Assembly (NCBI GenBank): GCA_904419545.1
Contig: CAJFRY010000006.1
Coordinates: 26,609 to 90,608 of the forward strand
DNA: 64,000 bases
DNA from: Candidatus Woodwardiibium gallinarum
Lineage (GTDB): Bacteria; Bacillota; Clostridia; Oscillospirales; CAG-382
Reading direction: 5' to 3'
The notes beneath the pieces were generated by a model. That model made no database searches. It was given only the letters and a program-made list of their open reading frames with translations, and was not told the DNA's origin. Positions 5,081 to 58,604 of the stretch are shown piece after piece. The position numbers were made by a program, and so were the translations under genes. Each line of letters opens with the position of its first letter. Position 1 is the first letter of the stretch.

Positions 5081-5732
5081 ACAAAGCCGTCAGCCGGTTG
5101 TACAGCGCCTCGGGCGTTTCAAAGACTTCCTTCGCGCCGTTCTCACGCAGAAACGCAGCCGTCCGATATCCCCAGCCGACCGGACAGCAGGGAATACCGG
5201 CCGCTTGAGCGGTCTGTATATCCACATCGGAGTCGCCGATATAGACGGTGTGCGCCTCGTCGGTCCCCAGCAATTCTATCGCGCGCAGCAGCATTGAGGG
5301 ATTCGGTTTGCGCTCGCTGTCGTCCCGTGCGCCGAGCGCGCAGCCGAGCAGTGCGCCGAAGAACCGGCGGCAAAGCGGCTGCGTGGCGTCGTGCTTCTTG
5401 TTGGAAACGACGCCCAGCCGGACGCCATCCTCCGAAAGGCGCTCCAAAAGCCACGGTATCCCCGGATAGGGCGCCGTGGTTTTGGTCATGTTTTCTCCGT
5501 AATAAGCGGAAAAGAGTGCCATCGCCTGCCGGTGCATCTCCTCATCCGCGCCCGCAGGCAGGCTGCGGCGCAGCAGCGTGGGAACGCCGTTGCCGATGAA
5601 GGAGCGCACCTCCTCCCGTGTACGGCGCGGACAGGACAGTTCCCCGAGCGCATAGTTGACCGCAGCGGTCAAATCCCCGAGGGTGTCAAGCAGTGTGCCG
5701 TCGAGATCGAAGATCGCGGCAAGGGCAGCCAT
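5064..5732 (-). CDS. HAD-superfamily phosphatase (phosphoglycolate phosphatase-like)
   Basis: 222 aa with HAD motif I, AIFDLDGTLLDT, and motif IV, GDSDVDIQ. It overlaps the downstream DUF3137 start by 17 nt. Confidence 0.7.
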   Translation of the reverse strand: MAALAAIFDLDGTLLDTLGDLTAAVNYALGELSCPRRTREEVRSFIGNGVPTLLRRSLPAGADEEMHRQAMALFSAYYGENMTKTTAPYPGIPWLLERLSEDGVRLGVVSNKKHDATQPLCRRFFGALLGCALGARDDSERKPNPSMLLRAIELLGTDEAHTVYIGDSDVDIQTAQAAGIPCCPVGWGYRTAAFLRENGAKEVFETPEALYNRLTALFAQRG

Positions 5733-5957
5733 TTACGCGTTCGCCTCGATATAGTCGGCCACGTCGCGCACGGTTTTGAGCTTGACGGCATCGTCGTCGG
5801 AAATAATGACGCCGAGATTGTCTTCAATAGCCATCAGCATCTCGACCACGTCGAGCGAATCCGCGCCGAGGTCCTCGATTATGTTCGCATCATCCTCAAT
5901 GGTGTTTATGTCGATTCGGAGCTGTTTTGCAAGCAGTTCTTTGATTTTTTCCAGCAT
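5733..5957 (-). CDS. acpP: acyl carrier protein
   Basis: 74 aa. Carries the phosphopantetheine attachment motif LGADSLDVVEMLM. Its stop abuts the HAD start codon. Confidence 0.85.
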   Translation of the reverse strand: MLEKIKELLAKQLRIDINTIEDDANIIEDLGADSLDVVEMLMAIEDNLGVIISDDDAVKLKTVRDVADYIEANA

Positions 5958-6077
5958 CGTTTCTTCTGCCTTTCCGCAATTAAATTTTATGTACCCCTAC
6001 TATAATGCATTTTGTCGTCCAATACAAGTACTTTGAGAAAAATTTTCGCTTTTTTCATAAAAACGGTCGGCGCTTTC

Positions 6078-6106
6078 TTGACTACGAAATCAGAGTGTGC
6101 TACAAT
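6078..6106 (+). promoter_or_regulatory. sigma-70-like promoter upstream of ruvC
   Basis: TTGACT, then a 17-nt spacer, then TACAAT. It lies about 50 nt upstream of the ruvC start. Confidence 0.5.
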
Positions 6107-6154
6107 AAGGTGTTTCATTATATCTAAATTATGGTTTTCGGAAAGAGGACATGC

Positions 6155-6640
6155 ATGGTCATTCTCGGCATCGATCCGGGCATCGCCACCGTCGGCTTCG
6201 GTATCATTGCGGCGGCGGACGGACGATACGGCGCAATTGAATACGGTGCGGTCATTACCAAGCCGCATCAGCTTCTGGAAACGCGGCTTTGCGAGATCTA
6301 CGATGCCGTGACCGAGTTGATCGAGCGGTACAAGCCCGACTGCATGGCGATCGAAGAGCTGTTCTTCAACATCAACCTCAAAACAGCCGTCGACGTCTGT
6401 CACGGCCGCGGCGTTATCCTTCTGGCGGCGGCCAAGAAAGGGCTGGACGTTTACGAATACACACCGCTGCAGATCAAACAGTCGGTTGTCGGCTACGGCC
6501 GTGCGGAAAAGCAGCAGGTAATGTATATGACCAAGCTGCTGCTCGGTTTGAACGAAACGCCGAAGCCGGACGACACAGCAGACGCGCTCGCCTGCGCCAT
6601 CTGCCACGCCAACCATATGATGCACAACTACGGGCGGTAA
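6155..6640 (+). CDS. ruvC: crossover junction endodeoxyribonuclease RuvC
   Basis: MVILGIDPGIATVGFGII... with the catalytic DPG motif. RBS gaaagagg sits 7 nt upstream of the ATG at 6155, so the ORF-track start at 6131 is probably an N-terminal over-extension. Confidence 0.9.
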   Translation: MVILGIDPGIATVGFGIIAAADGRYGAIEYGAVITKPHQLLETRLCEIYDAVTELIERYKPDCMAIEELFFNINLKTAVDVCHGRGVILLAAAKKGLDVYEYTPLQIKQSVVGYGRAEKQQVMYMTKLLLGLNETPKPDDTADALACAICHANHMMHNYGR

Positions 6641-6930
6641 AGCTGCGCTGACGGCGGGAAATGCCCCGAACGCATTTTGTCAGCCGTCCAATCGGACGTG
6701 CGGTCCCCGCCGCAGCCCGACGCCCGTTTCCCGTGGGAAAGACGGACTGCGTATCAAAAGTCGGGTCAATGATTCGCGCATACATATGAGCTGCGGCTTT
6801 CCCTGCCCGACCGGCGCCATACGTCATATCGGCAGAAATCGCCAAATCCGGCATCCATAGAATGTTGAACCTGTACCCACTGAATCCCGAAAGGAGAGCG
6901 CTTTCGTTCCGCGAGAGCGTCAGTCATAAA

Positions 6931-7524
6931 ATGTACGATTATTTCAAGGGGACGCTGGCGAGCCTGAAACCCGACGCCGCCGTCATCGACTGCGGCGGCA
7001 TAGGCTATAAGCTGACGGTCAGCGCCTCAACGCACGCGAAGCTATCACCCCTGCTGGGTCGGGAAGCGACGCTGTTTGCCCACCTCGCCGTACGGGAGGA
7101 CGCAATGGAGCTATACGGCTTCTTTGACGAAACCGAGCGGTCGCTGTTCATCCACCTGCTGTCGGTCTCGGGCGTAGGCCCGAAGGCAGCGGTTTCGGTG
7201 CTGTCCACCCTGTCGGCGGACAAGCTGGCCTTTTGTGTGGCCTCCGGCGACGCCAAAGCGATTGCCTCTTCGCCCGGCGTGGGCTTGAAAACGGCGCAGA
7301 AGATTATTCTTGAGCTCAAGGACAAGCTGGCCAAGGAGTTCTCGTCCGCCGAGCCGCTGCCCGACGGACTCCCCGCAGGCGAAGCGAACGACGCCTCCGA
7401 TGCGGTCAACGCGCTGCTGGTGCTCGGATATTCACGCGCACAGGCACTCGGCGCGCTCAAGGGCCTCGACCCGGCGCTGCCTCTGGAAATCCGCATCCGG
7501 GAAGCGCTCAAAAAGCTCTATTGA
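6931..7524 (+). CDS. ruvA: Holliday junction DNA helicase RuvA
   Basis: MYDYFKGTL...IDCGGIGYKLTVS, plus HhH motifs (SVSGVGPKAA, SPGVGLKTAQKI). The internal Met at 6931 was chosen over the ORF-track start at 6862. Confidence 0.9.
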   Translation: MYDYFKGTLASLKPDAAVIDCGGIGYKLTVSASTHAKLSPLLGREATLFAHLAVREDAMELYGFFDETERSLFIHLLSVSGVGPKAAVSVLSTLSADKLAFCVASGDAKAIASSPGVGLKTAQKIILELKDKLAKEFSSAEPLPDGLPAGEANDASDAVNALLVLGYSRAQALGALKGLDPALPLEIRIREALKKLY

Positions 7525-7583
7525 ATTTTTGCTCTACTTAAAAAAATAGTTAACATGAATCCGATAAAAGGAGGTGCAGGGCG

Positions 7584-8675
7584 ATGCCGATCAACGCAGC
7601 CCACGGCAATATCCGCGAGCCGTCCGGCGAGGGGTGGGACAGCCTTGAAAGCCGGCTGACCGGGCCGGAATACGGTCCCGCAGACGGCGAAAACGAATTT
7701 TCGCTGCGGCCGCGCAATTTTGACGAATACATCGGGCAGGACGCAATCAAAGAGAACCTTTCGGTTTTTATCGCGGCCGCGCGCGAGCGGGGCGACTGTC
7801 TTGACCATGTGCTGCTGCACGGCCCGCCCGGGCTGGGCAAGACGACGCTGTCCTGCATCATCGCCTCGGAGCTGGGCGTAAATTTGAAGATCACTTCCGG
7901 CCCGGCCATCGAGAAGGCCGGTGATCTGGCCGCGCTGCTGACCACGCTCAACCGCAACGACGTGCTGTTCATCGATGAAATCCACCGACTGCCCCGCGCG
8001 GTCGAGGAGGTCCTATACCCGGCGATGGAGGATTTTGCGCTCGACCTGATGATGGGCAAGGGCCCGTCGGCGCGCTCCATCCGCATTCCGCTCCAGCCCT
8101 TCACCCTCATCGGCGCGACGACGCGTTCGGGACAGCTTTCCTCCCCGCTGCGCGACCGGTTCGGTATGCTGTTCCGGCTGGAGCTGTACACGCCGGAGGA
8201 GCTGGCCGTCATTGTCACCAATTCGGCCGGACGGCTGTCCATGCCCATCACGGCCGACGGCGCGGCGGAGATCGCGCGCCGCTCACGCGGCACGCCCCGC
8301 ATCGCCAACCGCTTCCTGCGCCGCGTGCGCGATTTTGCGCAGGTGATGGGAGACGGGGTGGTGGACGGCGCCATCGCGCGCAAGGCGCTGACCGCGCTCA
8401 ATGTCGACGCACTGGGATTAGACGCGACTGACCGCCGGATGCTTTCGACGATCGCCAAGAGCTTCGGGGGCGGCCCCGTCGGGCTGGAAACGCTCGCCGC
8501 CGTCATCGGTGAGGAATCCGTCACGCTTGAGGACGTCTATGAGCCCTACCTTCTGCAGCTCGGCTTTCTCAACCGCACGCCGCGGGGACGCTGCATCACG
8601 CCGGCAGCCTACGCGCACATCGGCCTGCGGCCGCCGAGCGCGCCGGAGGACGGGCAGCAACAACTGGATCTGTAG
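7584..8675 (+). CDS. ruvB: Holliday junction DNA helicase RuvB
   Basis: 363 aa. Walker [18 protein letters not shown], and sensor motifs. RBS aaaggagg. Confidence 0.95.
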
Positions 8676-45089: not shown

Positions 45090-47249
45090 TCACAGCAGCG
45101 TTTCAAAAAAGCGCTCGGAAACAGCCGCCGCCTCGTCCCTGCAAAGCGCACGGAAATCCAGAGGTCCCGTATGCTTGCGCAACGCCTCAAACAGCAGCTT
45201 CTGCTCAGGCAGATAGACGTCACGCACCAGCTCGGCGATGTACGAGCGGCAGTACATATTGTTCGCGTTTTCCTTAAGCGTCCGCTCGAACTGCGGATTG
45301 ACCGGCGAAACCGCCTTCAGCTTTTCCAGCGACGCACGCAGCGAATAGTCCTCATGTTCCGCCAACAGCGCAGCCAGCGCTTCGGTTTGTTCGAGACAGG
45401 ATTCGCAGAGCGGCGCGACATCCCCGCCCGTCAGATACGCACGGCGGAGCTTGAGGATCGTCAGCGAGATACGGCGGCCGAGCAGCGTGCGGCGGATGTC
45501 CCACACATCGCGGCGGACGCGCGGATCGGCCAAATCGATTCCCGCCAGCGCATGTTCGATCTCAGGCGCACGGAACAGCGCTTTTTCAAGCAATTCGATC
45601 AGTCCATCATAGCGTTCGGCGGATTCGTTTTCCTTGAACGCAAAATGGTCGAAAATATTGAAGAACAGGTCGGTCGTCAGCTTCCTGCCGTCGTCCGCAC
45701 TCCAAACCGCAGCGGCGGAGATATCCAGCATCGCCAGACGCACGGGCAGCATCGCATCGCTCTGCGCGCCGTAGCGGCGGCGGCAGAAATCCGCAGCGAA
45801 GCGGCGCGCGTCGATTACCCCGTCCGCCCACGCGTTGGCAGCGGCGTACTCGAGCATAAACGTGTCGGCGTGCGACAGCTCGGGCCAGAGAACAAAGCCG
45901 ACGCAGAGCGGGTCTGCTTTGGCTTTTTCCATCACGCGTTCGATGAAAGCGTAGTCGTTGCGGATCTCCGAGTTCGGCTCATAGGCCTGAAAGATACCGA
46001 AAATCCAAGGAAAGCGGCCTATTACATCCCAGTTGAGCACCGAATTCTCGGTCTGCGAATCGGAGGTATAATCAAGCAGGAGAACCTGCTCTTTGTCCAG
46101 CTCGTCCAGCAGGCGGCGAACTTCGTCATTGGTATAGGTAAAGTACAAATCCCACGAAGCCAGCAGCAGCTTGCTTCCGGGATAGTTTTCCCTGATATAC
46201 CTGCAGATACGACGGTAAACGTACAGCTTCAGCCGCAGATTGGCCTCACGGTCCTCGGAATAGGTGCGCTCGGCCAGGCCGATGGTATGAAACAGCCCTG
46301 CCTGCCCGTAATTCCGAATGTGCGCGGCGGTGAGCGCGAAATAGTTATCCAGATTCGCGTCGTCGGCAATGTCCCAGACCAGCCCGGTCTGCTCGCTGTA
46401 GATGCCGCTGTTCTGCGAAAGCAGCCGGGGTTGCTTGGCACGCAGGAAGTCCAGCGGCGTGCGGGAGTACCAGTGCGTCATCGTGCCGCAGTCCTCGGGG
46501 TGCATCAGGTCGCGCTCGAAGGCGTAGGACAGCACCCGTTTGCGCAGCACGCCTCGGTACTCGAGAGACCAGAAGAGCGTGCGGTCGTCAAACCCCTTCC
46601 CCGCCTCGGGAAGCCTGTCCACGGCGGAGGGATAGGAAACGCAGTCGGGGAACGCCTTCTGGAACAGGTCGTCCAGCCCCAGCCGCAGCATAAACAGGTT
46701 CATCCGCTTTTTCAGCAGCCAGTCAATTTCACGCTCCCAATCCTCCGGTCCCCACATTTCGGCCTGAAACCGGTGCAGCGAGCGATGTGCAAAATACCGT
46801 GTGCCGCGGTACGCAAAGCGCGGCGTCTCGGCGAGCGACACGCCCTCCCACACGATGTCCGCGCGCTTCGGCACGGTGTCGCCGTCCCAGAAATATGAAC
46901 AGCCGCAATACTGCTCGAAATAGCGGTAAACGGCATAAATCGCCGACCGGCCGCGGCCGGACGCAAGGTAAAGCACCCTGCGCCCGTCCTCGGCTGCGCT
47001 TTTGATCGTATAGCCGTCGCCGCCATAAACCAGCGGCGCAAAATCCAGCCGTCCGTCCAGCACGCGCTCGGCCGCAAAGCGGTTGACGCTGTCCGAGCCG
47101 ATGACGACAAGATCGCCCGTTCCCGGGACGTCTCCGTCGCCGGCAAAAGCGGCCGGACGACCGGTGCTCTCCTCATACAGCCGCGCAAACTCGCGCGCGG
47201 CGATACCGTAGGCGCTGTGTGCGCGATGCGGCCTGACGATGGTCAGCAT
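45090..47249 (-). CDS. alpha-N-acetylglucosaminidase-like glycoside hydrolase (GH89/NAGLU family)
   Basis: 719 aa. WGPEDWEREIDWLLKKRMNLFML matches the NAGLU TIM-barrel entry motif (W.REIDW). A later PWIFGIF segment and an all-helical C-terminus fit the family layout. Confidence 0.65.
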   Translation of the reverse strand: MLTIVRPHRAHSAYGIAAREFARLYEESTGRPAAFAGDGDVPGTGDLVVIGSDSVNRFAAERVLDGRLDFAPLVYGGDGYTIKSAAEDGRRVLYLASGRGRSAIYAVYRYFEQYCGCSYFWDGDTVPKRADIVWEGVSLAETPRFAYRGTRYFAHRSLHRFQAEMWGPEDWEREIDWLLKKRMNLFMLRLGLDDLFQKAFPDCVSYPSAVDRLPEAGKGFDDRTLFWSLEYRGVLRKRVLSYAFERDLMHPEDCGTMTHWYSRTPLDFLRAKQPRLLSQNSGIYSEQTGLVWDIADDANLDNYFALTAAHIRNYGQAGLFHTIGLAERTYSEDREANLRLKLYVYRRICRYIRENYPGSKLLLASWDLYFTYTNDEVRRLLDELDKEQVLLLDYTSDSQTENSVLNWDVIGRFPWIFGIFQAYEPNSEIRNDYAFIERVMEKAKADPLCVGFVLWPELSHADTFMLEYAAANAWADGVIDARRFAADFCRRRYGAQSDAMLPVRLAMLDISAAAVWSADDGRKLTTDLFFNIFDHFAFKENESAERYDGLIELLEKALFRAPEIEHALAGIDLADPRVRRDVWDIRRTLLGRRISLTILKLRRAYLTGGDVAPLCESCLEQTEALAALLAEHEDYSLRASLEKLKAVSPVNPQFERTLKENANNMYCRSYIAELVRDVYLPEQKLLFEALRKHTGPLDFRALCRDEAAAVSERFFETLL

Positions 47250-47260
47250 AAGCTCCCGCT

Positions 47261-48409
47261 TTACAGACGGGTCGCGCGGAACACACGCGCCGAATGCGGC
47301 TCAACGACAGCATACATACCGTGTACGAATTCACCCATATCCACATGCGCAATCACATCGCGCAGCTTTACGCGGTCGGTCATTTCCCAGCCGCAGTACT
47401 GCCACGAGAGGATCATTTTCTTGGGCGAATCGCCCTCGTTAAGCAGACAAAAGGCAATATCGCCGTTCTGGAGCGGCTTGGCGAGGATAATGTCGCCGTT
47501 GCTCATCGGCGGCAGCGCATAGCCCTGAACGCCCAGGTCATCCTGATTGATGGCAATAAGCTCCTTGTTCAGCAGAATCCTGGCAATCTCGGGACGCGTC
47601 TTACGGACGTCATGTCCCATCAGCAGGGGCGCGGCGAGAATACACCAGAGCGAGAAGTGCGCGCTGTACTCGTTGTCCGTGCAGCCCTTGCAGACGTCCT
47701 CCGGCTTCATCCAGCCCACGCCCGACGCCCAGCCCTCACCATCCAGACCGACAACCATCATATCCGGATCGTTCCAGCCGTTCGGACCCGAGAAGGGCGC
47801 CACAGACATCGCATTCTTCGCCACATGCACGATCGAGGACCACTGGTCCGTAATATCGCCCGACAGCCGCCACATATTTGCGCCCACGCTGCGCATCCAC
47901 TCGGTCACTTCAGTACGGCCGAGACAGCCGGAGAAAAGGATATCCCTGCCGCTCTCGCGCAGCGCCTGTCCCATCCGGCGGAACAGCTCAGGCGCGTTGG
48001 TGCCCGGCGCAACGTAGCCGAAGTCATATTTCAACAGGTCGACGCCCCACTCGGCAAATTTGCGCGCATCCTGCCGCTCGTAGCCGTAGCTGCCCGCGCG
48101 GTTGGCGTAGGTCAGGACGCCCGCGCCGGCATAAAGGCCGAATTTCAGCCCGCGCTCGTGGATATAATCGCCCAGTGCCTTCATCCCGGACGGAAACGTC
48201 TCCGGATTGGCCTGCAGATCGCCGTTTGCGTCGCGCTCAAGCGCCATCCAGCAATCATCCACAGAAACATACGTATAGCCCGCGTCGCGGAAGCCCTGTT
48301 CCACCATCGCGTCGGCCGTCTCGCGCACGACCTGCTCATTGATTTTCCCCGGCCCGAAATAATTCCAGGCGTTCCACCCCATCGGGGGCTTTGGTGCCAT
48401 TAATGCCAT
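47261..48409 (-). CDS. alpha-galactosidase/alpha-N-acetylgalactosaminidase (GH27)
   Basis: MALMAPKPPMGWNAWNYFG, VSVDDCW and LLKYDFG are GH27 signature segments. RBS gaggga lies before the Met at 48409. Confidence 0.85.
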   Translation of the reverse strand: MALMAPKPPMGWNAWNYFGPGKINEQVVRETADAMVEQGFRDAGYTYVSVDDCWMALERDANGDLQANPETFPSGMKALGDYIHERGLKFGLYAGAGVLTYANRAGSYGYERQDARKFAEWGVDLLKYDFGYVAPGTNAPELFRRMGQALRESGRDILFSGCLGRTEVTEWMRSVGANMWRLSGDITDQWSSIVHVAKNAMSVAPFSGPNGWNDPDMMVVGLDGEGWASGVGWMKPEDVCKGCTDNEYSAHFSLWCILAAPLLMGHDVRKTRPEIARILLNKELIAINQDDLGVQGYALPPMSNGDIILAKPLQNGDIAFCLLNEGDSPKKMILSWQYCGWEMTDRVKLRDVIAHVDMGEFVHGMYAVVEPHSARVFRATRL

Positions 48410-48892
48410 CGTTATTTCCCTCGCTTTTTTATTTTTCTCCGTCGTTCGTACGGACAGAGACCGTTTACGGCGATTGTAACACAAAGAACAGCGAATTACA
48501 AGTAGGCACGCGCGAAAAACGAAAAATCTTTTTTAGGCTTCCTGCGCTGAGAAGTCCGGCACAAAGTGACATACATATGCAAAGAAATCCATACCCACCC
48601 ACGCATCTGCAATTTTCCGAACAGGTCAGAACGCTTTTCCAAATTGCGGCGAATCAAGATAAAAGCAATCCATCCTCCGGAGTGAAGGCACAAGGCTGTA
48701 TCCCGCATCCGCTGATGTAAAATCCGCCTTGCTTTTCATCTGCGGAAATATTCCGCGTATTCCGCACGGCTGCTCCATAACAAAACGGCGGCAGGGAAAA
48801 ATCCCTGCCGCCGGAATGTGGCACGCCGGTCAGCCCTGCGATTTGCCGCCGCGGCGTCTTATCTCCATCGGAAGATCTGTTTTCAGACTTTG

Positions 48893-50785
48893 TTATTCCC
48901 CGACGGTGAACGTCCAGGTAGACTTGTTGCTCGTGCGGCGGCCGGCCTCCATCAGCGTCGGCGCACCGGTGTCAAACTTGGAGAAGTAGACTTTATTATG
49001 GGACGAATTCATATCCCAGATAAAGGTCTTATCGCCGTTGGAGAAGAAGTCGCTTGCATCCTCCAGCGAGTATACCTGTACGTCGAATTTATAATCCGGA
49101 TTCTTCGGACCGTACAGCACCACGCGCATCGCGTCCGTCTGCCCGAGGAAGGGGCCGGAATAATCGGGCTTGACCCCTTCAAGCGTGGTTTCGACCTTTT
49201 CAACGCTGCCGTCCAGTCTGTAGAATTCCGCAAACTGCCCGTACTGCTTGGAAACAGGGAACATGCAGGTGTACGAGCGGCCCATATAGACATCGCGGAT
49301 AAATTCGCAGTCAGCCTCGAAGGTAATGGTATTGCCCGCCACACGGTATGTGCGCGTCACATTGGCGTACGGCTTCGACGCGTCGGTCGTATACAGCTCG
49401 GTATGCTCGACGATCGTCAGGTTGCGGATTTCCGCGGATTGCCCGTTGGCAAGCACCAGCTCCTCGCCCGTTGAGCCGTCGTAGAAACGGATGTCCACAA
49501 GCGTCTCCCTGCCATGGTTTCCGCCCGACCAGTCGAGTCCGCCGTCGGAATCGCCGACCATATTCACATATTCCCAGTCGGTGCCGCCGCCGGCGAGCGC
49601 CTCGCCGTCATAGCGCCACGTACCGATATTCCACGTCCCCCAGGATTTCTTATCAAAGGTCAGGGTAAGAGGCTTACCCGCATAGGTGCAGGACAGGGTG
49701 TACTGCACATCGCTGCTGCGTTTGAATTCCATCTCATATTCTCCGATCGGATCGCGGTACTTATCGACGATTGCGCCAAGCTTCAGTACGTCGCGCTTTA
49801 TACGCAGATAATCAGACGGCATCAGTTTCTCGCCGTTGGCCATACAGACGCTGAGCTTCTGCATATCGGTCAGCTCGGTTTTCCGGATCACGGCGCGCTT
49901 GGCCTGCAGATAATCCAGAGCCGTTACATTGCCGTTGCCGTCGAAATCGCCCTCAATGACAATTGTCAGGCTTTCCAGCAGCGAGCCGTAAAAATATTTT
50001 TCAATCACATCGCCGGTGACAAGCGTTTCATCCGCGCCGCATACCGTACCGTCCGCATGACGGACGACAATGCTTTCATCCGGATTGATATACGCGGCCA
50101 AACCCTCGGCTGTCGTGCCGTGCTTGATGCCGCGGAGGTATTCCCCGTCCACCGTGGCGGTGGAATTACAGAGGAAGTTCAGCTCGTCACGCTCGGACGG
50201 CTGAAGCTCGACCATCTCCGCGGTCATGACCTCAAATTCCGAAACAAAAACGAACATGCCGCTCGCCGGCTTGATCCTGGCGCGGGCCACAGTCACCTCG
50301 GAAGGCTCGGACAGGTCAAGCACATAATCGACATAAGTCCCGTTGCCCTCCTTCTCGGCCAGGCCAACCGAGACAAGGCTTTCTTCGTCCGCACCGATGA
50401 AAAATTCCACCGACTCCGGGAGAACGACACTTGCGCCCGAATTATCGCAGCACTGAATTGAAAGCCGTTCAATTTTCTCGGCCGTCTCGGCAAGCTCGAC
50501 GGTGATGTAGTAATACCCGTCCTCGGCAGCACCGTTATAGAAGGCGTGCCACTCGGTTCCGTAGAGCGACGAGCCCTTGACGCCGTCGGTCAGCTCCTTG
50601 CCGTCAATCTGCACATACGCATTCGGATTTGGCTCGGTATACGGCGTGGTCGCCGTATACGGGCTGCCGACCGCGACGTTGACGTAAGTCTCCACCTCGA
50701 CGGCCGATGCCGCCGCAGACAGCGCAGGCAGCAAAAGCGCAAGCGCCAGCAGCGCCGGAAGCAATCTTTTTTTGTTCATATACAT
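48893..50785 (-). CDS. secreted protein with discoidin/CBM32-like module, dockerin-like repeat and uncharacterised C-terminal beta-rich domain
   Basis: Signal peptide MYMNKKRLLPALLALALLLPALSAAASA. An LTDG-containing N-module. GDFDGNGNVTALDYLQAKRAVI is a dockerin-type Ca-binding repeat. The C-terminal ~270 aa are unassigned. Confidence 0.65.
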   Translation of the reverse strand: MYMNKKRLLPALLALALLLPALSAAASAVEVETYVNVAVGSPYTATTPYTEPNPNAYVQIDGKELTDGVKGSSLYGTEWHAFYNGAAEDGYYYITVELAETAEKIERLSIQCCDNSGASVVLPESVEFFIGADEESLVSVGLAEKEGNGTYVDYVLDLSEPSEVTVARARIKPASGMFVFVSEFEVMTAEMVELQPSERDELNFLCNSTATVDGEYLRGIKHGTTAEGLAAYINPDESIVVRHADGTVCGADETLVTGDVIEKYFYGSLLESLTIVIEGDFDGNGNVTALDYLQAKRAVIRKTELTDMQKLSVCMANGEKLMPSDYLRIKRDVLKLGAIVDKYRDPIGEYEMEFKRSSDVQYTLSCTYAGKPLTLTFDKKSWGTWNIGTWRYDGEALAGGGTDWEYVNMVGDSDGGLDWSGGNHGRETLVDIRFYDGSTGEELVLANGQSAEIRNLTIVEHTELYTTDASKPYANVTRTYRVAGNTITFEADCEFIRDVYMGRSYTCMFPVSKQYGQFAEFYRLDGSVEKVETTLEGVKPDYSGPFLGQTDAMRVVLYGPKNPDYKFDVQVYSLEDASDFFSNGDKTFIWDMNSSHNKVYFSKFDTGAPTLMEAGRRTSNKSTWTFTVGE

Positions 50786-50963
50786 TCGCTTTCCTTTCCT
50801 TCGCGCAGAAATCGTGCACAAATGATGGTTTCTTCCGGTATTATAGCACACTCTGTTCCGAAAAGCAACGGTATATTTGTGCGACCTGCGATGTTTTTTC
50901 CCTTACGACCGATCCCGTGATGCAAACGGCAAGCTGCTTTGCAAAAAAGTTTGCCCCAATCTC

Positions 50964-51031: not shown

Positions 51032-51114
51032 GCGATTGTGGCGGAACTGGCAGACGCGCACGTTTGAGGGGCGTGTGGGTAACCGTATGGGTTCAAGTCC
51101 CATCAGTCGCACCA
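51032..51114 (+). tRNA. tRNA-Leu (anticodon GAG), class II with long variable arm, CCA encoded
   Basis: Acceptor GCGATTG/CAGTCGC. Anticodon stem CACGT/GCGTG with loop TT-GAG-GG. T arm ATGGG-TTCAAGT-CCCAT. Ends in ACCA. Confidence 0.9.
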
Positions 51115-53011: not shown

Positions 53012-53260
53012 GCGCTGCGCATCGCGCGGCAGGGAGCCTTTCTGCTCAGAACGCGTCTCCCGTATATGTTCCTGTACGGCAAATTGCAAAAATCTGCGCC
53101 AAAGGGATTGATATATTCATAGAATTAAGGTATACTTTTCCCTAAGAAACAACGCGCATTCCGCCGTATTCACCGGATCGGTGACGAAAACGCGGCGAAG
53201 GAAGGCAGACGGTTTGCTCTGCAAGAAAAATCAAAAGACAGGAAACGGAGTGGATACGCA

Positions 53261-55843
53261 ATGCAAATACTGGTAATCGGCGGTGTTGCGGCAGGGACAA
53301 AAGCCGCCGCGAAGCTCAAGCGGGAGGACAGGGGTCTGGAAGTGACCCTGATCACGAAGGATCAGGACATCTCCTATGCGGGCTGCGGACTTCCCTATTA
53401 TGTCGGCGGCCTGATCGAGAGCCGGGACGCGCTCATTGTCAACACGCCCGAAAAGTACGCCGCCCTGACCGGCGTCCGTGTGCTGACCGGCCGGGAAGCC
53501 ATAGAGCTGAACAGCGCGGAAAAAACAGTGAAGGCCAAAAACCTGCTCTCCGGCGAAACAGAATCCTACCGCTACGACCGTCTGGTGATTGCCACCGGCG
53601 CGTCCGCCGTGGTTCCGCCGCTCGAAGGGGTGGAGCTGAAGGGCGTCTTCAAAATGCGGACGCCCGACGACGCCATCCGCATACGAGCCTACATCGAAGC
53701 CGCAAACGTGAAAAAAGCCGTCGTAGTCGGCGGCAGCTTCATCGGCCTGGAGGCAGCGGAGAACCTGCACGCGCAGGGCGTAGAGGTGACCGTAATCGAC
53801 TTTGCCTCCCAGCTCCTGCCCAACGTTTTGGATCCGGAAATGGCCGACTACGCCAAGCGGCACCTGCAAAAGCAGGGCATCCGCGTCCTGACCGGCACCA
53901 AAGCGGAAAAGCTGCTCGGCGACGGCCGGGTAACGGCGGTCAGGACCGATACCGCCGCCCTGCCGGCCGAGCTGGTCGTACTGTCGGCAGGCATCCGGCC
54001 CAACACGGCATTTCTGGCGGACAGCGGAATGGAAATGTACAAGGGGACCATCCTCGTAGACGAACGGCTTCGTACCAACCTGCCTGACGTATATGCCGCA
54101 GGCGACTGCGTCATGGTGACCAACCGCATCACCGGACGGCGGCAGTGGTCGCCGATGGGCTCCTCCGCCAATCTGGAGGGACGCACACTGGCGCAGATCC
54201 TGACCGGGCAGGACAAGACATATCCCGGCGTCCTGGGCACCGGCGTTGTCAAGCTGCCCGGCCTGAACTGCGGCCGCACGGGCCTTACCGAGCTGCAGGC
54301 CAAGGAAGCAGGATACGACGTGGTGACTGCGCTGGCCGTCACCGATGACAAGGCGCACTATTATCCGGACGCGGCATTTTTCATCACCAAGCTGATTGCC
54401 GACCGCAGGACGCACAAGCTGCTCGGGGTACAGGTCTTCGGCCCGGGCGCGGTGGACAAAATGGTAGACATCGCCGTCATGGCCATCAATATGGGGGCCG
54501 TTTTAGAGGATTTTGAAAACGCCGACTTCGCCTACGCGCCGCCGTTTTCCACGGCAATTCATCCGCTGGTTCAGGCGGTATACATCCTGCTGAATAAGCT
54601 GAACGGCACTCTGGTGAGCATGACGCCGGCCGAATATGCAGCGGGCGCCGCAGAAGGCTACAGGGTCATCGATGCGGCGCCGGCACCGTCCATTCGGGGC
54701 GCAACGTTCGTGGATCCGGCATCGGTGAACGGCGAAATCCCGGGCATCGGCAAAGAAGAAAAGCTCCTGCTGGTTTGCGTCCGGGGCAAACGCGCCTATT
54801 TCCTGCAAAATCGGCTCCGGTATTTCGGCTATAAGGACACCGTTGTGCTGGAAGGCGCTACATTCTTCAACGAAGTCAGGGTCAAAGACGCGCAGAGCGC
54901 TGTTTCGCCCGAGGAAAAGACCCGGGTGAAGGGGTTGGGCTTCCTGTTTGACAAACGTTCGCAGGACCGCTTCAATGCGCGTGTCATCACCCGCAACGGA
55001 AAGATTACCGCCGAGGAAAGCAAAGCAATTGCCGAGGCAGCGGAACGGTTCGGCAGCGGTGAGATCGCTATGACCTCGCGCCTGACGGTGGAAATCCAGA
55101 GCGTGCCCTTCGACAACATTGAGCCGCTGCGGGAATTCCTCGCGCAGTACGGTCTGGAAACCGGCGGTACCGGCTCCAAGGTACGCCCGATTGTTTCCTG
55201 CAAGGGCACGACCTGCCAATTCGGACTGATCGACACCTTCGCTTTGTCGGAGGAGATTCACGAGCGCTTCTATCATGGCTACCGCGACGTGAAGCTGCCG
55301 CATAAGTTCAAGATCGCAGTCGGCGGATGTCCCAACAACTGCGTCAAGCCCGACCTGAACGACGTAGGCATCATCGGCCAGCGGGTGCCGCTGCTTGACC
55401 TTGAAAAATGCCGCGCCTGCAAGATATGTCAGGTGGAAAAGAGCTGTCCGATCCATGTGGTGCATATGAAGGACGGCAAGCCGGTCATCGACGAGGCCGC
55501 CTGCAACCACTGCGGCCGCTGCATAAGCAAATGTCCTTTCCAGGCAATCCGTTATGCGCAGGACGGCTACCGGATCTATATCGGCGGCCGCTGGGGCAAA
55601 AAGGTCGCACAGGGCAAGTATTTAAACAAGGTCTTTACCGACAAGGACGAAGTGCTGGACGTGCTGGAAAAAGCGATTCTCCTGTTCCGCGAGCAGGGCA
55701 TCACCGGCGAACGGTTTGCGGACACGGTCGCACGGCTGGGCTTTGATAACGTTCAGGAGCAGCTTCTTTCCGATCAGCTTCTGGAACGGAAGCGGGAGAA
55801 CCTTTCCGCGCAGAAGCATATGAAGGGCGGAGCGACTTGCTGA
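53261..55843 (+). CDS. three-module fusion: CoA-disulfide reductase/NADH oxidase-like flavoprotein + rhodanese + siroheme-type sulfite/nitrite reductase beta-domain with 2x[4Fe-4S] ferredoxin insert
   Basis: 860 aa. FAD GxGxxG (VIGGVAAGTKAA), redox Cys SYAGCGLPYYVGG, and NAD site VVVGGSFIGLE. The rhodanese active site is CVRGKR (residues ~505-510). SiR cluster/siroheme cysteines are CKGTTCQ and GGCPNNC. Ferredoxin motifs are CRACKICQVEKSCP and CNHCGRCISKCP. Confidence 0.8.
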   Translation: MQILVIGGVAAGTKAAAKLKREDRGLEVTLITKDQDISYAGCGLPYYVGGLIESRDALIVNTPEKYAALTGVRVLTGREAIELNSAEKTVKAKNLLSGETESYRYDRLVIATGASAVVPPLEGVELKGVFKMRTPDDAIRIRAYIEAANVKKAVVVGGSFIGLEAAENLHAQGVEVTVIDFASQLLPNVLDPEMADYAKRHLQKQGIRVLTGTKAEKLLGDGRVTAVRTDTAALPAELVVLSAGIRPNTAFLADSGMEMYKGTILVDERLRTNLPDVYAAGDCVMVTNRITGRRQWSPMGSSANLEGRTLAQILTGQDKTYPGVLGTGVVKLPGLNCGRTGLTELQAKEAGYDVVTALAVTDDKAHYYPDAAFFITKLIADRRTHKLLGVQVFGPGAVDKMVDIAVMAINMGAVLEDFENADFAYAPPFSTAIHPLVQAVYILLNKLNGTLVSMTPAEYAAGAAEGYRVIDAAPAPSIRGATFVDPASVNGEIPGIGKEEKLLLVCVRGKRAYFLQNRLRYFGYKDTVVLEGATFFNEVRVKDAQSAVSPEEKTRVKGLGFLFDKRSQDRFNARVITRNGKITAEESKAIAEAAERFGSGEIAMTSRLTVEIQSVPFDNIEPLREFLAQYGLETGGTGSKVRPIVSCKGTTCQFGLIDTFALSEEIHERFYHGYRDVKLPHKFKIAVGGCPNNCVKPDLNDVGIIGQRVPLLDLEKCRACKICQVEKSCPIHVVHMKDGKPVIDEAACNHCGRCISKCPFQAIRYAQDGYRIYIGGRWGKKVAQGKYLNKVFTDKDEVLDVLEKAILLFREQGITGERFADTVARLGFDNVQEQLLSDQLLERKRENLSAQKHMKGGATC

Positions 55844-56820
55844 AACGATGGACGGCATTCCTGCTCGCCGCAGCTCTGGCGGTTTCTCTTGCCGCCTGCC
55901 GGAGCGGGCAGGAAGCGGACGAAACGCAACCCTCTCAAGCGCCCGCCGACGCGGGCTGGGGCGAATATACGTTTTCGGACGCCTCCGGCGCTGCGGTTAC
56001 GCTGACCGAACGGCCCGAACGGGTGGCAGTGCTGTTTTCCTCCTTTGCCGACATATGGCTGACCGCCGGCGGCCGGGTGGACATCACCGTCGGGGAAAGC
56101 GTAGAGCGGGGCTTCGTACCGGAGGGAACGCTTCTTGTGGACGACGGCGCGGGAAAAACGATCAACCGGGAACTTCTTCTTTCCTACGCGCCGGACTTCG
56201 TCATCTGCTCGGCAGATCTGGAGGAACAGGTTCAGACGGCGGCGTTCCTGCGGCAGCAGGGTATTCCGGCAGCGGTGTTCCATGTCGAAAGCTTTCAGGA
56301 GTATCTGAATATGCTGAAAATCTGCACGGACATCACCGGAGACCAAGGCGCCTACGAAACCTACGGCACGCAGGTTCAGGCGGAGATCCGCGACGTCCTG
56401 ACATCGGTGCCGGAAGCAGAGAAGGACGGTCAAAAGCGGATCCTGTTTGTCCGGGCGGGCTCCAAATACAGCGCCACCAAGGCCAAGACCGCCGAGAACA
56501 ATTTCGTATGCGTGATGCTCAACGAGCTGGGCACCTACAACATCGCGGAGAACGCGCCGGTGCTGCTGGACGGTCTGAGTCTGGAGGAAATCCTGTTGGA
56601 AAACCCCGACTTTATCTTTATTTCCACTATGGGAGATGAAGCGGCCGCAAAAGCCTATATGGACGGCGTACTCCGCGAGGATGCCTGGCAGCATCTGGAC
56701 GCAGTACGGGACGGACGGTACGCCTATCTGCCGAAGGAACTGTTCCAGTTCAAGCCGAACAAGCGCTGGAGCGAAGCATACCGCTATCTGGCAGGCCTGC
56801 TGTACCCCGGGGAGAACTGA
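55837..56820 (+). CDS. ABC transporter substrate-binding lipoprotein (FecB/BtuF-type, iron-chelate/corrinoid class)
   Basis: The TTG start overlaps the upstream stop by 7 nt. Signal peptide with lipobox LAAC. The cluster-A SBP pattern (PERVAVLFSSFADIW...PDFVICS) is present. Confidence 0.8.
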   Translation: MLKRWTAFLLAAALAVSLAACRSGQEADETQPSQAPADAGWGEYTFSDASGAAVTLTERPERVAVLFSSFADIWLTAGGRVDITVGESVERGFVPEGTLLVDDGAGKTINRELLLSYAPDFVICSADLEEQVQTAAFLRQQGIPAAVFHVESFQEYLNMLKICTDITGDQGAYETYGTQVQAEIRDVLTSVPEAEKDGQKRILFVRAGSKYSATKAKTAENNFVCVMLNELGTYNIAENAPVLLDGLSLEEILLENPDFIFISTMGDEAAAKAYMDGVLREDAWQHLDAVRDGRYAYLPKELFQFKPNKRWSEAYRYLAGLLYPGEN

Positions 56821-56826
56821 AACCAT

Positions 56827-57846
56827 ATGGAAAAAGGAACAGAAACAAAAAACCGTTACTTTTGCAGAACCAAAGCCGGTTGGCTGACGCTCATTCTGCT
56901 GCTTTTGTGCGTCGTGCTGCTCTCCCTGCGGTTTGGAAGCGCGGCAATGGACGGGCAGGCCTTTTGGGGCGGACTGCTTCGGCAGGAGGGCTTCGAGACA
57001 CAGTCGCTGATCCTGTATTCCCTGCGGCTCCCGAGATTGCTGCAGGGAATTCTGGCCGGCGTCGGGCTTTCCGTCTCCGGCGTCCTGCTGCAAAGCGTAA
57101 CCGGCAACGATCTGGCCAGTCCAAGCATCATCGGCGTCAATGCCGGCGCAGGCTTTGCGGTGATCCTGCTTTTAAGCTTTTTCCCGCACGCCGCTGCAGG
57201 ACTGCCGCCGGCTGCTTTTCTGGGCGCCTTCCTGACGACGCTGCTGATCATGGCGATCGCCGGCCGGATGGATGCCTCAAAGGCCACCGTCATTCTGGCA
57301 GGGATCGCCGTGCAGGCGCTTCTGAATGCGGGGATTTCCTTCCTTTCTCTGCTGGACACCGATGTGCTCGTGTCTTATAGCTACTTCTCCGTAGGCGGGC
57401 TGTCTAATACCGATATCCGCCTGCTTTGGCTCCCGGGCGGGATCATCCTGCTGGGGTTCGCTGCGGCGCTGGCCTTCTCCGGACAGATCCGGCTCCTGTG
57501 CCTGGGAGACGGTATGGCGCTCTCGCTGGGCGTCCGGGTCAAACGGGTGCGGATGCTTTGTCTGGTGTGTGCCAGCGCCTGTGCGGCGGCTGTCGTAAGC
57601 TTTGCCGGGCTGCTTGGGTTCGTCGGGCTGATCGTACCGCACATTTCCCGCAGGCTGGCAGGCACGAAAACGGGGCCGCTGCTCGCAGTTTCCGCAATGA
57701 CGGGCAGCATTCTGGTTCTGACGGCAGACCTGCTGGGAAGAGTGGTCTTTGCGCCGTCGGAGGTACCGGTGGGCATCGTGATGGCCTTCATCGGCGCGCC
57801 GTTTTTCTTTTTTCTGCTGCTGCGAAGGAGGAAAACGTCATGCTGA
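56827..57846 (+). CDS. FecCD-family ABC transporter permease
   Basis: 339 aa, about 9-10 TM helices. LRLPRLLQGILAGVGLSVSGVLLQSVTGN is a typical FecCD motif. Confidence 0.9.
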   Translation: MEKGTETKNRYFCRTKAGWLTLILLLLCVVLLSLRFGSAAMDGQAFWGGLLRQEGFETQSLILYSLRLPRLLQGILAGVGLSVSGVLLQSVTGNDLASPSIIGVNAGAGFAVILLLSFFPHAAAGLPPAAFLGAFLTTLLIMAIAGRMDASKATVILAGIAVQALLNAGISFLSLLDTDVLVSYSYFSVGGLSNTDIRLLWLPGGIILLGFAAALAFSGQIRLLCLGDGMALSLGVRVKRVRMLCLVCASACAAAVVSFAGLLGFVGLIVPHISRRLAGTKTGPLLAVSAMTGSILVLTADLLGRVVFAPSEVPVGIVMAFIGAPFFFFLLLRRRKTSC

Positions 57847-58604
57847 GCTTTCATCAGGTATGCGCCGGATACGGAAAAACGTTGGTGCTCGACCGCATCG
57901 ATTTCTCGCTTGCGCCGCACGCGATGACGGCCGTGGTGGGCAGGAACGGCAGCGGCAAATCCACGCTGGTTTCCTGCGTCAACCGAAAGCTCCCGTACAC
58001 CGGGGAGATCTCCTTCTCCGGCCGCAGTCTGGCGTCGATGACGCCACGGGAGCAGGCAAAGCGGATCGCCATCCTGCCGCAGACGCTTCCTTCACCTGCG
58101 GTCACCGTGGAGGAACTGGCGGCTTTCGGGCGGAGTCCCTATCTGGATTTCGGCAAACGGTTGTCTCCGAAGGACAAGCAGCTTGTTCGTGAAGCTCTGG
58201 AGACGGTCGGGATCGCCGGCCTGCGGCACAAGCTGCTCACCGAGCTTTCGGGCGGCGAGCGCCAAAAGGCGTATCTGGCTATGATGCTGGCGCAGGATAC
58301 AGATGTTTTACTTCTGGACGAGCCGACCACGTATATGGATATACAATACGAATCCGCTTTCTTCCGGCTTCTGGAACGGTTGAAGACCGAAAAGGGAATC
58401 ACGCTGCTCGTCATCCTGCATAATCTCTCGCAGGCGGTGCGGTATGCCGACCGCATCGTCGTGCTGGACGGAGGCCGTGTCTGTTATCAGGGAGATGCAC
58501 AGTCCTGTGCAGACAGCGGCGTTCTCGAATCGGTGTTCCATGTCAAGCGGCATTCGGTCGTCGAAAACGGCAGACGGTTGGATTTTTATACCGCCGGAGA
58601 ATGA
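57840..58604 (+). CDS. ABC transporter ATP-binding protein (FepC/FecE-type)
   Basis: MLSFHQVCAGYG..., Walker A GRNGSGKST, signature LSGGERQK, and Walker B LLLDEPTTYMD. There is an ATGCTGA overlap with the permease stop. The ORF-track start at 57426 was rejected. Confidence 0.9.
   Translation: MLSFHQVCAGYGKTLVLDRIDFSLAPHAMTAVVGRNGSGKSTLVSCVNRKLPYTGEISFSGRSLASMTPREQAKRIAILPQTLPSPAVTVEELAAFGRSPYLDFGKRLSPKDKQLVREALETVGIAGLRHKLLTELSGGERQKAYLAMMLAQDTDVLLLDEPTTYMDIQYESAFFRLLERLKTEKGITLLVILHNLSQAVRYADRIVVLDGGRVCYQGDAQSCADSGVLESVFHVKRHSVVENGRRLDFYTAGE

Follow-up and report, generated by a model that had tools for sequence, protein, structure and literature searches.

A flavoprotein–rhodanese–siroheme sulfite reductase fusion of gut Clostridia, and a C-terminal cysteine arm that co-varies with its thiol partner

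Introduction

What does an enzyme do that joins a pyridine-nucleotide flavoprotein, a rhodanese and a siroheme sulfite reductase (SiR) in one polypeptide, and how do its parts work together? The question is raised by a gene at positions 53261..55843 (+ strand; ATG start, stop codon included; 860 aa) of a 64,000-nucleotide stretch of DNA from Candidatus Woodwardiibium gallinarum (contig CAJFRY010000006.1), which as a whole we refer to as the window. The fusion gene encodes, in this order, a CoADR-type flavoprotein, a rhodanese, a SiR and a cysteine-bearing tail. As we report here, the fusion is a real enzyme, present in many gut Clostridia. It brings together known modules in an uncharacterised combination and ends in a newly recognised cysteine arm, the distribution of which among relatives suggests a new mode of coupling. 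The architecture is surprising from the standpoint of sulfur enzymology, relevant to gut hydrogen sulfide (H2S) and directly testable.

Inflammatory bowel disease and colorectal disease have both been linked to hydrogen sulfide made in the gut. Surveys of gut H2S at present count dsrAB and asrABC genes (e.g. bioRxiv 10.64898/2026.06.24.733704). The fusion, together with a sister family in which a C-GCAxxG-C-C domain precedes the same SiR, is found in many Lachnospiraceae and Oscillospiraceae/Ruminococcaceae and would escape surveys based on asrA or dsrA; the fusion enzyme may be a source of gut H2S that such marker-gene counts overlook. It also bears on the use of sulfite or thiosulfate by fermenters as a sink for NADH.

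The fusion is real and widespread

Pfam divides the 860-aa protein into Pyr_redox_2 (residues 1–287, E 6e-66) and Pyr_redox_dim (335–434), with Pyr_redox also matched, followed by NIR_SIR_ferr (566–629) and NIR_SIR (638–835, E 3e-31), inside which several Fer4 models match within residues 716–770. Alignments to proteins in the PDB and modelling with AlphaFold2 (AF2) agree with the three-part open reading frame that an earlier note, made from the sequence alone, had described at this position. In the AF2 model of the whole protein (pLDDT 81, pTM 0.61) the first two parts are separated from the SiR by a linker, residues 541–552 (54881..54916, + strand), where model confidence is low (pLDDT below 50 at residues 543–546) and conservation weaker (0.73 versus 0.85 overall).

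An assembly or frameshift artefact that artificially joins separate genes, which the same note had asked to be checked, is ruled out by full-length orthologues across genomes. Among 5.8 billion proteins searched, more than 100 clusters of ~860 aa matched at 75–100% identity, and several of these occur on dozens to hundreds of contigs, complete Blautia genomes among them. When GTDB was searched at one genome per species, 305 stretches encoded a relative; in the best 80 of these, which we examined as reference loci, the fusion is full length without exception (80/80, 73–85% identity). Carriers include Clostridium leptum DSM 753, Blautia hansenii, Faecalicatena orotica, many Mediterraneibacter and Lachnospiraceae bacterium 10-1. 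Truly split versions also exist, and these have a stop codon, a ribosome-binding site and an ATG of their own. Relatives of the fusion protein are named only ‘FAD-dependent oxidoreductase’ in databases, and our literature search, limited to open-access PMC and bioRxiv, found no description of this architecture.

The N-terminal half resembles NADH-dependent persulfide reductases

Residues 1–445 (53261..54595, + strand) form a flavin adenine dinucleotide (FAD)/NAD(P)H pyridine-nucleotide-disulfide oxidoreductase of the CoADR/Npsr/Nox class, with the redox cysteine Cys42 (codon 53384–53386, + strand) lying within SYAGCGLPYYVGG. The rhodanese domain follows at residues 446–540 (54596..54880, + strand), its catalytic Cys506 (codon 54776–54778, + strand) being placed in the loop C-V-R-G-K-R. 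Residues 1–536 align with CoADR-rhodanese persulfide reductases in the PDB (6pfz, E 5e-98; also 3icr, 8a56 and 3nta): SYAGCGLPYY is in register with the SFANCGLPYY that 3icr and 8a56 share and with the slgrCglpyy of 6pfz, and Cys506 falls, residue for residue, on the catalytic rhodanese cysteine of 6pfz, 3icr and 8a56. Superposed as a single unit, residues 1 to ~545 of the AF2 model match 8a56, 6pfz, 3icr and 3nta (target TM 0.87–0.93, ~540 columns). Cys42 and Cys506 are both invariant among the family sequences (83/83). While the Pfam Rhodanese model scores only 17.5 bits on the rhodanese segment alone, under its cut-off of 22.2, the predicted identity of this sequence-divergent domain is well supported by alignment and model together.

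The FAD and NAD motifs are intact (GxGxxG and GD are conserved, and Pyr_redox_2, Pyr_redox and Pyr_redox_dim score above their cut-offs), and the Asp that ends strand beta-2 (VTVIDF) suggests a preference for NADH. Profiles for CoADR itself stay below their curated NCBIfam cut-offs (TIGR03385, 380.4 versus 578.8 bits; NF007123, 373.9 versus 458 bits). The likeness to Npsr, CoAPR and CoADR-RHD (3nta, 6pfz, 8a56, 3icr) nevertheless runs end-to-end from residue 1 to ~540 with both cysteines in register. The fusion differs from these enzymes by ~320 extra C-terminal residues, which amount to a complete siroheme enzyme, by SYAGC in place of their SFANC/SYANC motif, and by an unusually basic rhodanese loop (CxKGKR), this strongly basic character holding across the family as C-[AV]-[KR]-G-K-R. 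In the Npsr/CoAPR route the rhodanese cysteine takes up sulfane sulfur, bound coenzyme A (CoA) takes it on to the equivalent of Cys42 by the FAD, and NAD(P)H frees H2S (PMC7969121, PMC9405070); the rhodanese cysteine of CoAPR is persulfidated in vivo (PMC9405070).

The C-terminal half is an Fsr-like sulfite reductase with a sulfite-type pocket

Residues 553–849 (54917..55807, + strand) form a siroheme SiR of the Fsr-C/AsrC-like kind (group III Dsr-LP type), into which a ferredoxin domain is inserted at residues 710–770 (55388..55570, + strand; Fer4 matches, aligned to the inserted ferredoxin of Fsr). The cysteines of the siroheme-[4Fe-4S] centre are Cys 647, 652, 690 and 694, and those of the two ferredoxin [4Fe-4S] motifs are Cys 717, 720, 723 and 729 and Cys 748, 751, 754 and 758; all four and all eight are invariant in 83 of 83 family sequences, so that the intact catalytic cysteines described in the earlier note hold on alignment. 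The motifs it quoted are likewise all present in the protein, with one correction: the first siroheme-cluster motif, C647-x4-C652 (CKGTTC), is a CX4C, one residue short of the canonical CX5C.

Residues 565–835 find their PDB counterparts in 7np8 and 7npa, both of them F420-dependent sulfite reductases (E ~1e-39). An AF2 model of residues 540–860 alone (pLDDT 86.8, pTM 0.85) is nearest in fold to Fsr (TMq 0.70, E 1e-22), next to DsrB/DsrA and then to assimilatory SiR and nitrite reductase (NiR) hemoproteins. Sequence and fold comparison therefore both uphold the likening of the two halves to CoADR-rhodanese persulfide reductases and to Fsr, respectively.

The sulfite site of related enzymes consists of four basic residues, R98, R170, K211 and K213 in AfDsrA and R355, R423, K460 and K462 in MtFsr, and in the nitrite-reducing FsrII both Arg are replaced, by Lys and Gly (PMC9295563, PMC10229431). 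The six-electron sites of assimilatory sulfite reductase (aSir) and Fsr combine Arg388 with CX5C...CX3C, where DsrA has a Thr and DsrB has CCX3C (PMC9295563, PMC10229431). In the fusion protein the anion-binding residues are R574, R642, K682 and K684, with R607 as the counterpart of Fsr Arg388, and all five are invariant in the family as well as in all related SiRs examined. Sulfite is therefore favoured over nitrite, in a site of the Fsr/assimilatory type.

Most homologues of Dsr-LP in bacteria belong to the AsrC/group III type (Susanti and Mukhopadhyay, PMC3448663). AsrABC of Salmonella and Clostridia stands for NADH-linked sulfite reduction in fermenters, as the fusion would, and the two share the broad SiR type (group III Dsr-LP, PMC3448663) and the gut setting (bioRxiv 10.64898/2026.06.24.733704); however, the AsrC profile TIGR02912 gives 104.5 bits against a cut-off of 324.1, and the NADH module of the fusion is of a different family. 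AsrA/AsrB-like genes occur neither among the recurrent neighbours in the 80 reference loci, nor among the annotated neighbours in the window, nor in the metagenome loci.

The same sulfite reductase lineage occurs with several thiol partners

Clustering at 50% identity reduces the entire fusion architecture to two representatives, P0121 and P0122, the latter belonging to a second, rare fusion clade (P0122, P0271–P0275; 866–891 aa). Between the two clades the SiR modules are 59–68% identical, whereas the flavoproteins are only ~35% identical. The clade-2 flavoprotein is no nearer to that of the window than unrelated stand-alone CoADR-rhodaneses are, a BLAST comparison of the clade-2 rhodanese with that of the window gave no match, and the flavoproteins have closer stand-alone relatives (52–60% identity for the window type, 50–55% for clade 2). 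The inter-module linker of clade 2 is much longer and variable. Such divergent flavoproteins on similar SiRs indicate at least two separate joinings of this SiR lineage to a CoADR-rhodanese, or else an exchange of the partner. The equivalents of Cys42 and of the rhodanese cysteine are invariant in both fusion clades.

The partners are also found as separate genes. In the split operons of five metagenome loci (L110, L129, L157, L160 and L172) a divergent LysR gene is followed by a CoADR-rhodanese gene, a spacer of 25–132 nt that contains a ribosome-binding site, and a gene for a ~317-aa SiR ending in GGATC; four of these split loci are distinct. The split CoADR-rhodanese is 54–59% identical to the window protein's N-terminal part and shares its SYAGCGLPY and C[AN]KGKR motifs. 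LysR-type regulators are typical of sulfur assimilation, and their adjacency speaks against nitrite as the physiological substrate.

A third kind of partner defines the large ~450-aa sister family, in which an N-terminal domain of the C-GCAxxG-C-C (seleno)protein family (TIGR01909, 74.1 bits versus a cut-off of 47.4), with neither a nucleotide-binding site nor a rhodanese, precedes the same SiR. Its hosts include Subdoligranulum, Lawsonibacter, Pseudoflavonifractor and Anaerotignum, among others. The query P0130 ends in VVGGATC, and all 14 of the 14 further members sampled carry the tail VVGGA[ST]C. In three of four distinct neighbourhoods a gene for a TauE/SafE-family permease lies upstream, usually in a two-gene operon, and these permeases are 71–73% identical between loci; this neighbour therefore supports a sulfur oxyanion as the substrate. 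Members of the family (P0130, P0390–P0508; L087, L089 and L092 ~5190–7360) are annotated as ‘C-GCAxxG-C-C family protein’ or ‘nitrite reductase’.

Finally, the SiR also occurs alone; for the stand-alone P0131, no metagenome relative above 67% identity was found. Two minor features of these loci may be added. Clade-2 fusions P0273–P0275 have an extra conserved cysteine in a ‘PCG(V/L)’ motif in the linker after the rhodanese, and the same PCG motif forms the C-terminus of the common stand-alone CoADR-rhodaneses P0367/P0369 (...RPAYPCGLPIK); the window clade is without it. In L110 the SiR is followed at 6873–7709 by a gene that is not conserved in L129; judged by eye, its product resembles an Fe-S carrier of the Mrp/ApbC type, with CxxC motifs at the N-terminus and then ...VVSGKG.

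A C-terminal cysteine arm co-varies with the thiol partner

The chain ends in an arm predicted to be flexible, residues 850–860 (55808..55840, + strand), of which Cys860 (codon 55838–55840, + strand) is the very last residue. Its GGATC end, including Cys860, is invariant in 83/83 family sequences and had gone unmentioned in the earlier note. The last ~10 residues are disordered (pLDDT ~41) in both AF2 models, that of the whole protein and that of residues 540–860. The same tail is found in clade 2, in the C-GCAxxG-C-C fusions (as GGA[ST]C) and in the split operons, and the partner precedes the SiR in each of the three fused architectures, so that the C-terminus stays free.

We tabulated tail and partner over all 173 fetched loci, dereplicated at 95% identity. 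Partner and tail occur together in 58 clusters, a partner without the tail in 0, the tail without a partner in 1 (L108) and neither in 8; stand-alone, partner-less SiRs of the same lineage thus lack the tail in eight of nine clusters. Fisher’s test on this table gives p = 1.4e-9, a statistic that ignores phylogeny and draws on loci sampled by similarity. In a neighbour-joining tree from which the tail columns were left out, tailed and tail-less SiRs are interleaved; the tail appears to have been gained or lost repeatedly in this lineage. A natural pair illustrates the pattern: the SiRs of L110 and L117 are 89% identical and their LysR neighbours ~78% identical, and L110 has a CoADR-rhodanese gene and a tail (...HTKGGATC) where L117 is without both.

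A sulfur relay through Cys860 is the favoured reading

This distribution is what would be expected if Cys860 physically links the SiR and its thiol partner, and for that reason we tentatively favour a sulfur relay. The protein would be a cytoplasmic, single-chain sulfite-to-sulfide reductase, its modules coupled by a swinging Cys860 and H2S being freed at the expense of NADH. Sulfite, whether imported, formed in the cell or derived from thiosulfate, would be reduced at a first centre, the Fsr-C/AsrC-like siroheme-[4Fe-4S] site, fed via the two [4Fe-4S] clusters of the inserted ferredoxin. The second centre would be the NADH-dependent persulfide-reductase site of the CoADR/Npsr type (FAD, Cys42 and rhodanese Cys506). 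Between the siroheme pocket and the rhodanese/CoA/Cys42 site would swing the ~11-residue arm, with Cys860 carrying sulfur as a persulfide or mixed polysulfide that NADH would then free as H2S. For the siroheme, low-potential electrons would most probably come from a soluble donor by way of the ferredoxin domain, as must be so in the partner-less and C-GCAxxG-C-C forms; the FAD may contribute. The analysis shows which domains and catalytic residues are present, that the fusion is genuine and widespread, that it arose independently and that its cysteine tail co-varies with the partner; what we infer is the substrate, the electron donors, and how and in which direction the relay would run.

The model for this proposal is the dissimilatory system. 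DsrAB passes a sulfur intermediate to the C-terminal cysteine arm of DsrC, and another enzyme reduces it (PMC10229431). Shared with DsrAB, DsrC and DsrMK(JOP) is a SiR of Dsr-like lineage. The invariant GGATC arm of the fusion, predicted to be flexible and co-varying with a persulfide-reductase partner, would be a built-in, soluble counterpart of the arm of DsrC, and the flavoprotein would correspond to the DsrC-trisulfide reductase. DsrC, however, is a separate protein with two cysteines, while here the arm lies within the SiR chain and has a single, terminal one; reduction falls to a membrane-bound Hdr-like complex in the one case and would fall to a soluble NADH flavoprotein in the other; and instead of the DsrA Thr or the DsrB CXnCCX3C the fusion has an invariant Arg607 and CX4C...CX3C. 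A full counterpart of DsrAB-DsrC-DsrMK in soluble form, in which the siroheme passes partly reduced sulfur to its own cysteine arm, a persulfide reductase (fused, adjacent or C-GCAxxG-C-C) finishes the reduction and the six electrons are split between ferredoxin and NADH, is a possibility that we advance with still more reserve; if true, it would represent a previously unrecognised mechanistic class of sulfite reductase. Cooperation between a SiR and a sulfur carrier has so far been studied mainly in the membrane-linked DsrAB/DsrC/DsrMKJOP. The present system is soluble and genetically compact, and since it comes in natural fused, split and partner-less forms, the 89%-identical pair among them, it is well suited to the study of how a siroheme SiR and a cysteine sulfur carrier cooperate.

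Several observations weigh against the relay. Arg607 and CX4C...CX3C are assimilatory/Fsr traits, and the site has neither the DsrA Thr nor the DsrB CCX3C; such traits go with full six-electron reduction that needs no DsrC-like co-substrate (PMC10229431). A tail-less SiR that is 89% identical to a tailed one presumably works alone. The arm has one cysteine where DsrC has two, AF2 docks the tail nowhere in either the whole-protein or the SiR-only model, and neither a ferredoxin gene nor that of another donor is conserved across the operons. In addition to the phylogeny-blind statistic mentioned above, there is the single exception to the pattern: L108 (3392–4366) encodes the sole tailed SiR (324 aa, ...HMKGGATC) with no adjacent thiol partner, located between nusG-rplK-rplA and a transporter on a contig of low coverage (1.4x). 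A partner gene may lie at another place in the same genome; alternatively, the contig could be a chimera.

Alternatives: electron wiring, thiosulfate, maintenance and nitrite

The alternative that survives best, somewhat less probable than the relay, is an NADH sulfite reductase akin to Fsr or NirB, in which electrons run one at a time from FAD through the two [4Fe-4S] clusters to the siroheme, all six come from NADH, and the cysteines and the rhodanese are accessory. In Fsr the flavin is linked to the siroheme via [4Fe-4S] clusters across the dimer (PMC10229431). The layout is alike: Fsr of methanogens (7np8, 7npa) has in one chain a donor flavoprotein and a small Dsr-like SiR of the same type with an inserted 2x[4Fe-4S] ferredoxin (PMC10229431), is the best match of residues ~565–835 in both sequence (E 1e-39) and fold (TMq 0.70), and has the same R/R/K/K anion site and the Arg388 to which Arg607 corresponds. 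Yet its N-terminal part is an FrhB/FpoF-type F420H2 oxidase with three extra clusters rather than a CoADR-type NADH flavoprotein with a rhodanese, and it is an archaeal enzyme with a CX5C first motif and no Cys-terminated arm, as opposed to the CX4C and the cysteine arm of the protein from gut Clostridia. The fusion protein may therefore work like Fsr without being a member of that family.

NirB, which the earlier note had overlooked, is the closest known precedent for a pyridine-nucleotide flavoprotein and a siroheme enzyme in a single chain: it combines a pyridine-nucleotide-disulfide-oxidoreductase flavoprotein (Pyr_redox_2) with a siroheme NIR_SIR module, and its profile TIGR02374 matches the fusion over three stretches with 245.7 bits, below the cut-off of 578.35. 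Its flavoprotein, however, is without the redox cysteine and the rhodanese, the link is a [2Fe-2S] BFD-like one and the siroheme module is of the assimilatory NiR/SiR type, while the pocket of the fusion is the sulfite-type R-R-K-K. The N-terminal module of the fusion is a bona fide Npsr/CoAPR-like one, yet by their defining features the protein falls outside Fsr, AsrC, NirB and DsrAB as whole families.

The electron wire draws further support from the intact NADH and FAD motifs, from operons that carry no conserved gene for a separate donor, and from related flavoproteins such as AorC (8c0z_E), which feed Fe-S chains. A path from NAD(P)H through flavin to siroheme had indeed been put forward in the earlier note, and the cofactor motifs that it calls for are in place; what did not stand is the path as the best fit to the comparative data, and intact motifs do not in themselves demonstrate it. 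Closely related SiRs dispense with an NAD(P)H module altogether, as stand-alone proteins or in fusion with C-GCAxxG-C-C, and a wire does not explain why that partner, which has no NAD(P)H site, sits on the same tailed SiR. Nor does it account for the invariance of Cys42, of Cys506 and of a whole rhodanese in two independent fusions, or for a C-terminal cysteine that tracks the thiol partner. Flavoproteins of the CoADR/Npsr/Nox class give hydride equivalents to a cysteine or sulfur substrate, and none is known to reduce Fe-S clusters. Moreover, the inter-module linkers are long and variable, and the whole-protein AF2 model (pTM 0.61) has no confident inter-module interface. What the comparative data point to instead is a relay of sulfur or thiols from one module to the other, perhaps in combination with electron transfer.

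Considerably less probable is a thiosulfate reductase, in which Cys506 would split thiosulfate, the resulting persulfide would be reduced by NADH at Cys42/FAD and the sulfite at the siroheme, so that a single chain would turn thiosulfate into two H2S. This overlaps with the favoured relay, the main difference being the substrate that enters. It gives every module a role and is in keeping with the strongly basic rhodanese loop. Thiosulfate is produced by the host in the gut. Halanaerobium fermenters, furthermore, use rhodanese-like proteins and an anaerobic sulfite reductase to convert thiosulfate to sulfide as a reductant sink (PMC5497025). On the other hand, it leaves the Cys860 tail and the rhodanese-less C-GCAxxG-C-C fusions unexplained, there is no thiosulfate transporter nearby, and the siroheme of Fsr refuses thiosulfate (PMC10229431), although acceptance at that site is not required here.

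A role of the thiol partner in maintenance or regulation is slightly less probable again. The SiR would be a complete ferredoxin-dependent enzyme, Cys860 would cap or guard the siroheme or itself become persulfidated or oxidised in a side reaction, and the partner would reset it with NADH, be it for protection, repair or on/off control. The tail-less, 89%-identical relatives imply a self-sufficient core, the siroheme site has assimilatory-type traits, the same tail is served by thiol partners of two chemical kinds, and the rhodanese cysteine of CoAPR does become persulfidated in vivo (PMC9405070). Against this, a permanent fusion, twice made and kept in at least 80 sampled species-level genomes, would be a heavy cost for repair, and we found no precedent for a cysteine-capped siroheme.

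That the siroheme physiologically reduces nitrite or another anion, as in NirB and FsrII, is very improbable because the pocket is an invariant R-R-K-K that matches DsrA and FsrI and not the K/G of FsrII, and the sulfur-handling nature of the partners and the TauE/SafE gene that adjoins the sister family tell the same way, even though siroheme sulfite reductases commonly reduce nitrite too (PMC10229431) and JGI and NCBI label relatives ‘NAD(P)H-nitrite reductase’ or ‘nitrite reductase’. The five readings, the relay included, are partly compatible with one another.

Genomic context

The fusion gene heads a cassette of four. Its end is overlapped by 7 nt by the start of a Peripla_BP_2 ABC substrate-binding protein gene (55837..56820, + strand; Pfam), which is followed by genes for a FecCD-family ABC permease (56827..57846, + strand; Pfam E 2.5e-83, NCBIfam) and an ABC transporter ATPase (57840..58604, + strand; ATG at 57840 with AAGGAGG ahead). 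C. leptum and its relatives are syntenic with the window over exactly this cassette of fusion and transporter, up to 58604, and nowhere beyond. The same type of transporter adjoins seven other clade-1 loci (L001, L002, L023, L042, L046, L061 and L071), clade 2 (L081–L083, with a different gene order and a divergent LysR) and the stand-alone SiRs of L106, L107 and L108, the binding protein being 40–81% identical across these loci. As it accompanies fused, clade-2 and stand-alone forms, the transporter follows the SiR module. The binding protein has only weak, generic similarities, to IsdE/heme, iron-complex and F420-0 binding proteins; one possibility is that the transporter supplies the enzyme with iron or with a tetrapyrrole cofactor, be it siroheme, one of its precursors or heme.

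A promoter-like site, TTGATA-17-TATACT (53108..53136, + strand), was picked up by a consensus scan ~125 nt before the start codon. The intervening leader (53137–53260, ~125 nt) matched no Rfam family, the sole Rfam match in the window being a tRNA-Leu.

In 49 of the 80 best reference loci a gene for a Cys-rich helix-turn-helix protein of the DUF134 family (PF02001, ~129 aa; e.g. L021 1027–1416) lies directly upstream of the fusion on the same strand; a LysR-type regulator takes its place in other loci and in the split operons, and the window has neither. The DUF134 regulator is the only recurrent functional neighbour of the fusion in Lachnospiraceae, the others being rpsF-ssb-rpsR and DHH-rplI-dnaB. 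In ~20 Lachnospiraceae loci the DUF134–fusion pair has rpsF-ssb-rpsR on one side and, on the other, a DHH-family (GdpP-like) gene with rplI and dnaB after it. Such a core chromosomal neighbourhood suggests long vertical residence in this family.

Elsewhere in the window there are no sulfur or siroheme genes, and the remainder is housekeeping. From 45090 to 50851, on the – strand, runs a series of glycoside-hydrolase type, comprising an NAGLU-like 719-aa protein, a 652-aa open reading frame with no Pfam match and an alpha-galactosidase (Melibiase_2). The tRNA-Leu(GAG) gene at 51032–51114 is followed by a low-GC stretch that extends to 52850 (~0.40–0.48, versus 0.57 for the window) and whose four to five small + strand open reading frames gave zero Pfam or PHROGs matches. 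This stretch, possibly left over from an integrated element, occupies the place where C. leptum (L001) has its DUF134 gene.

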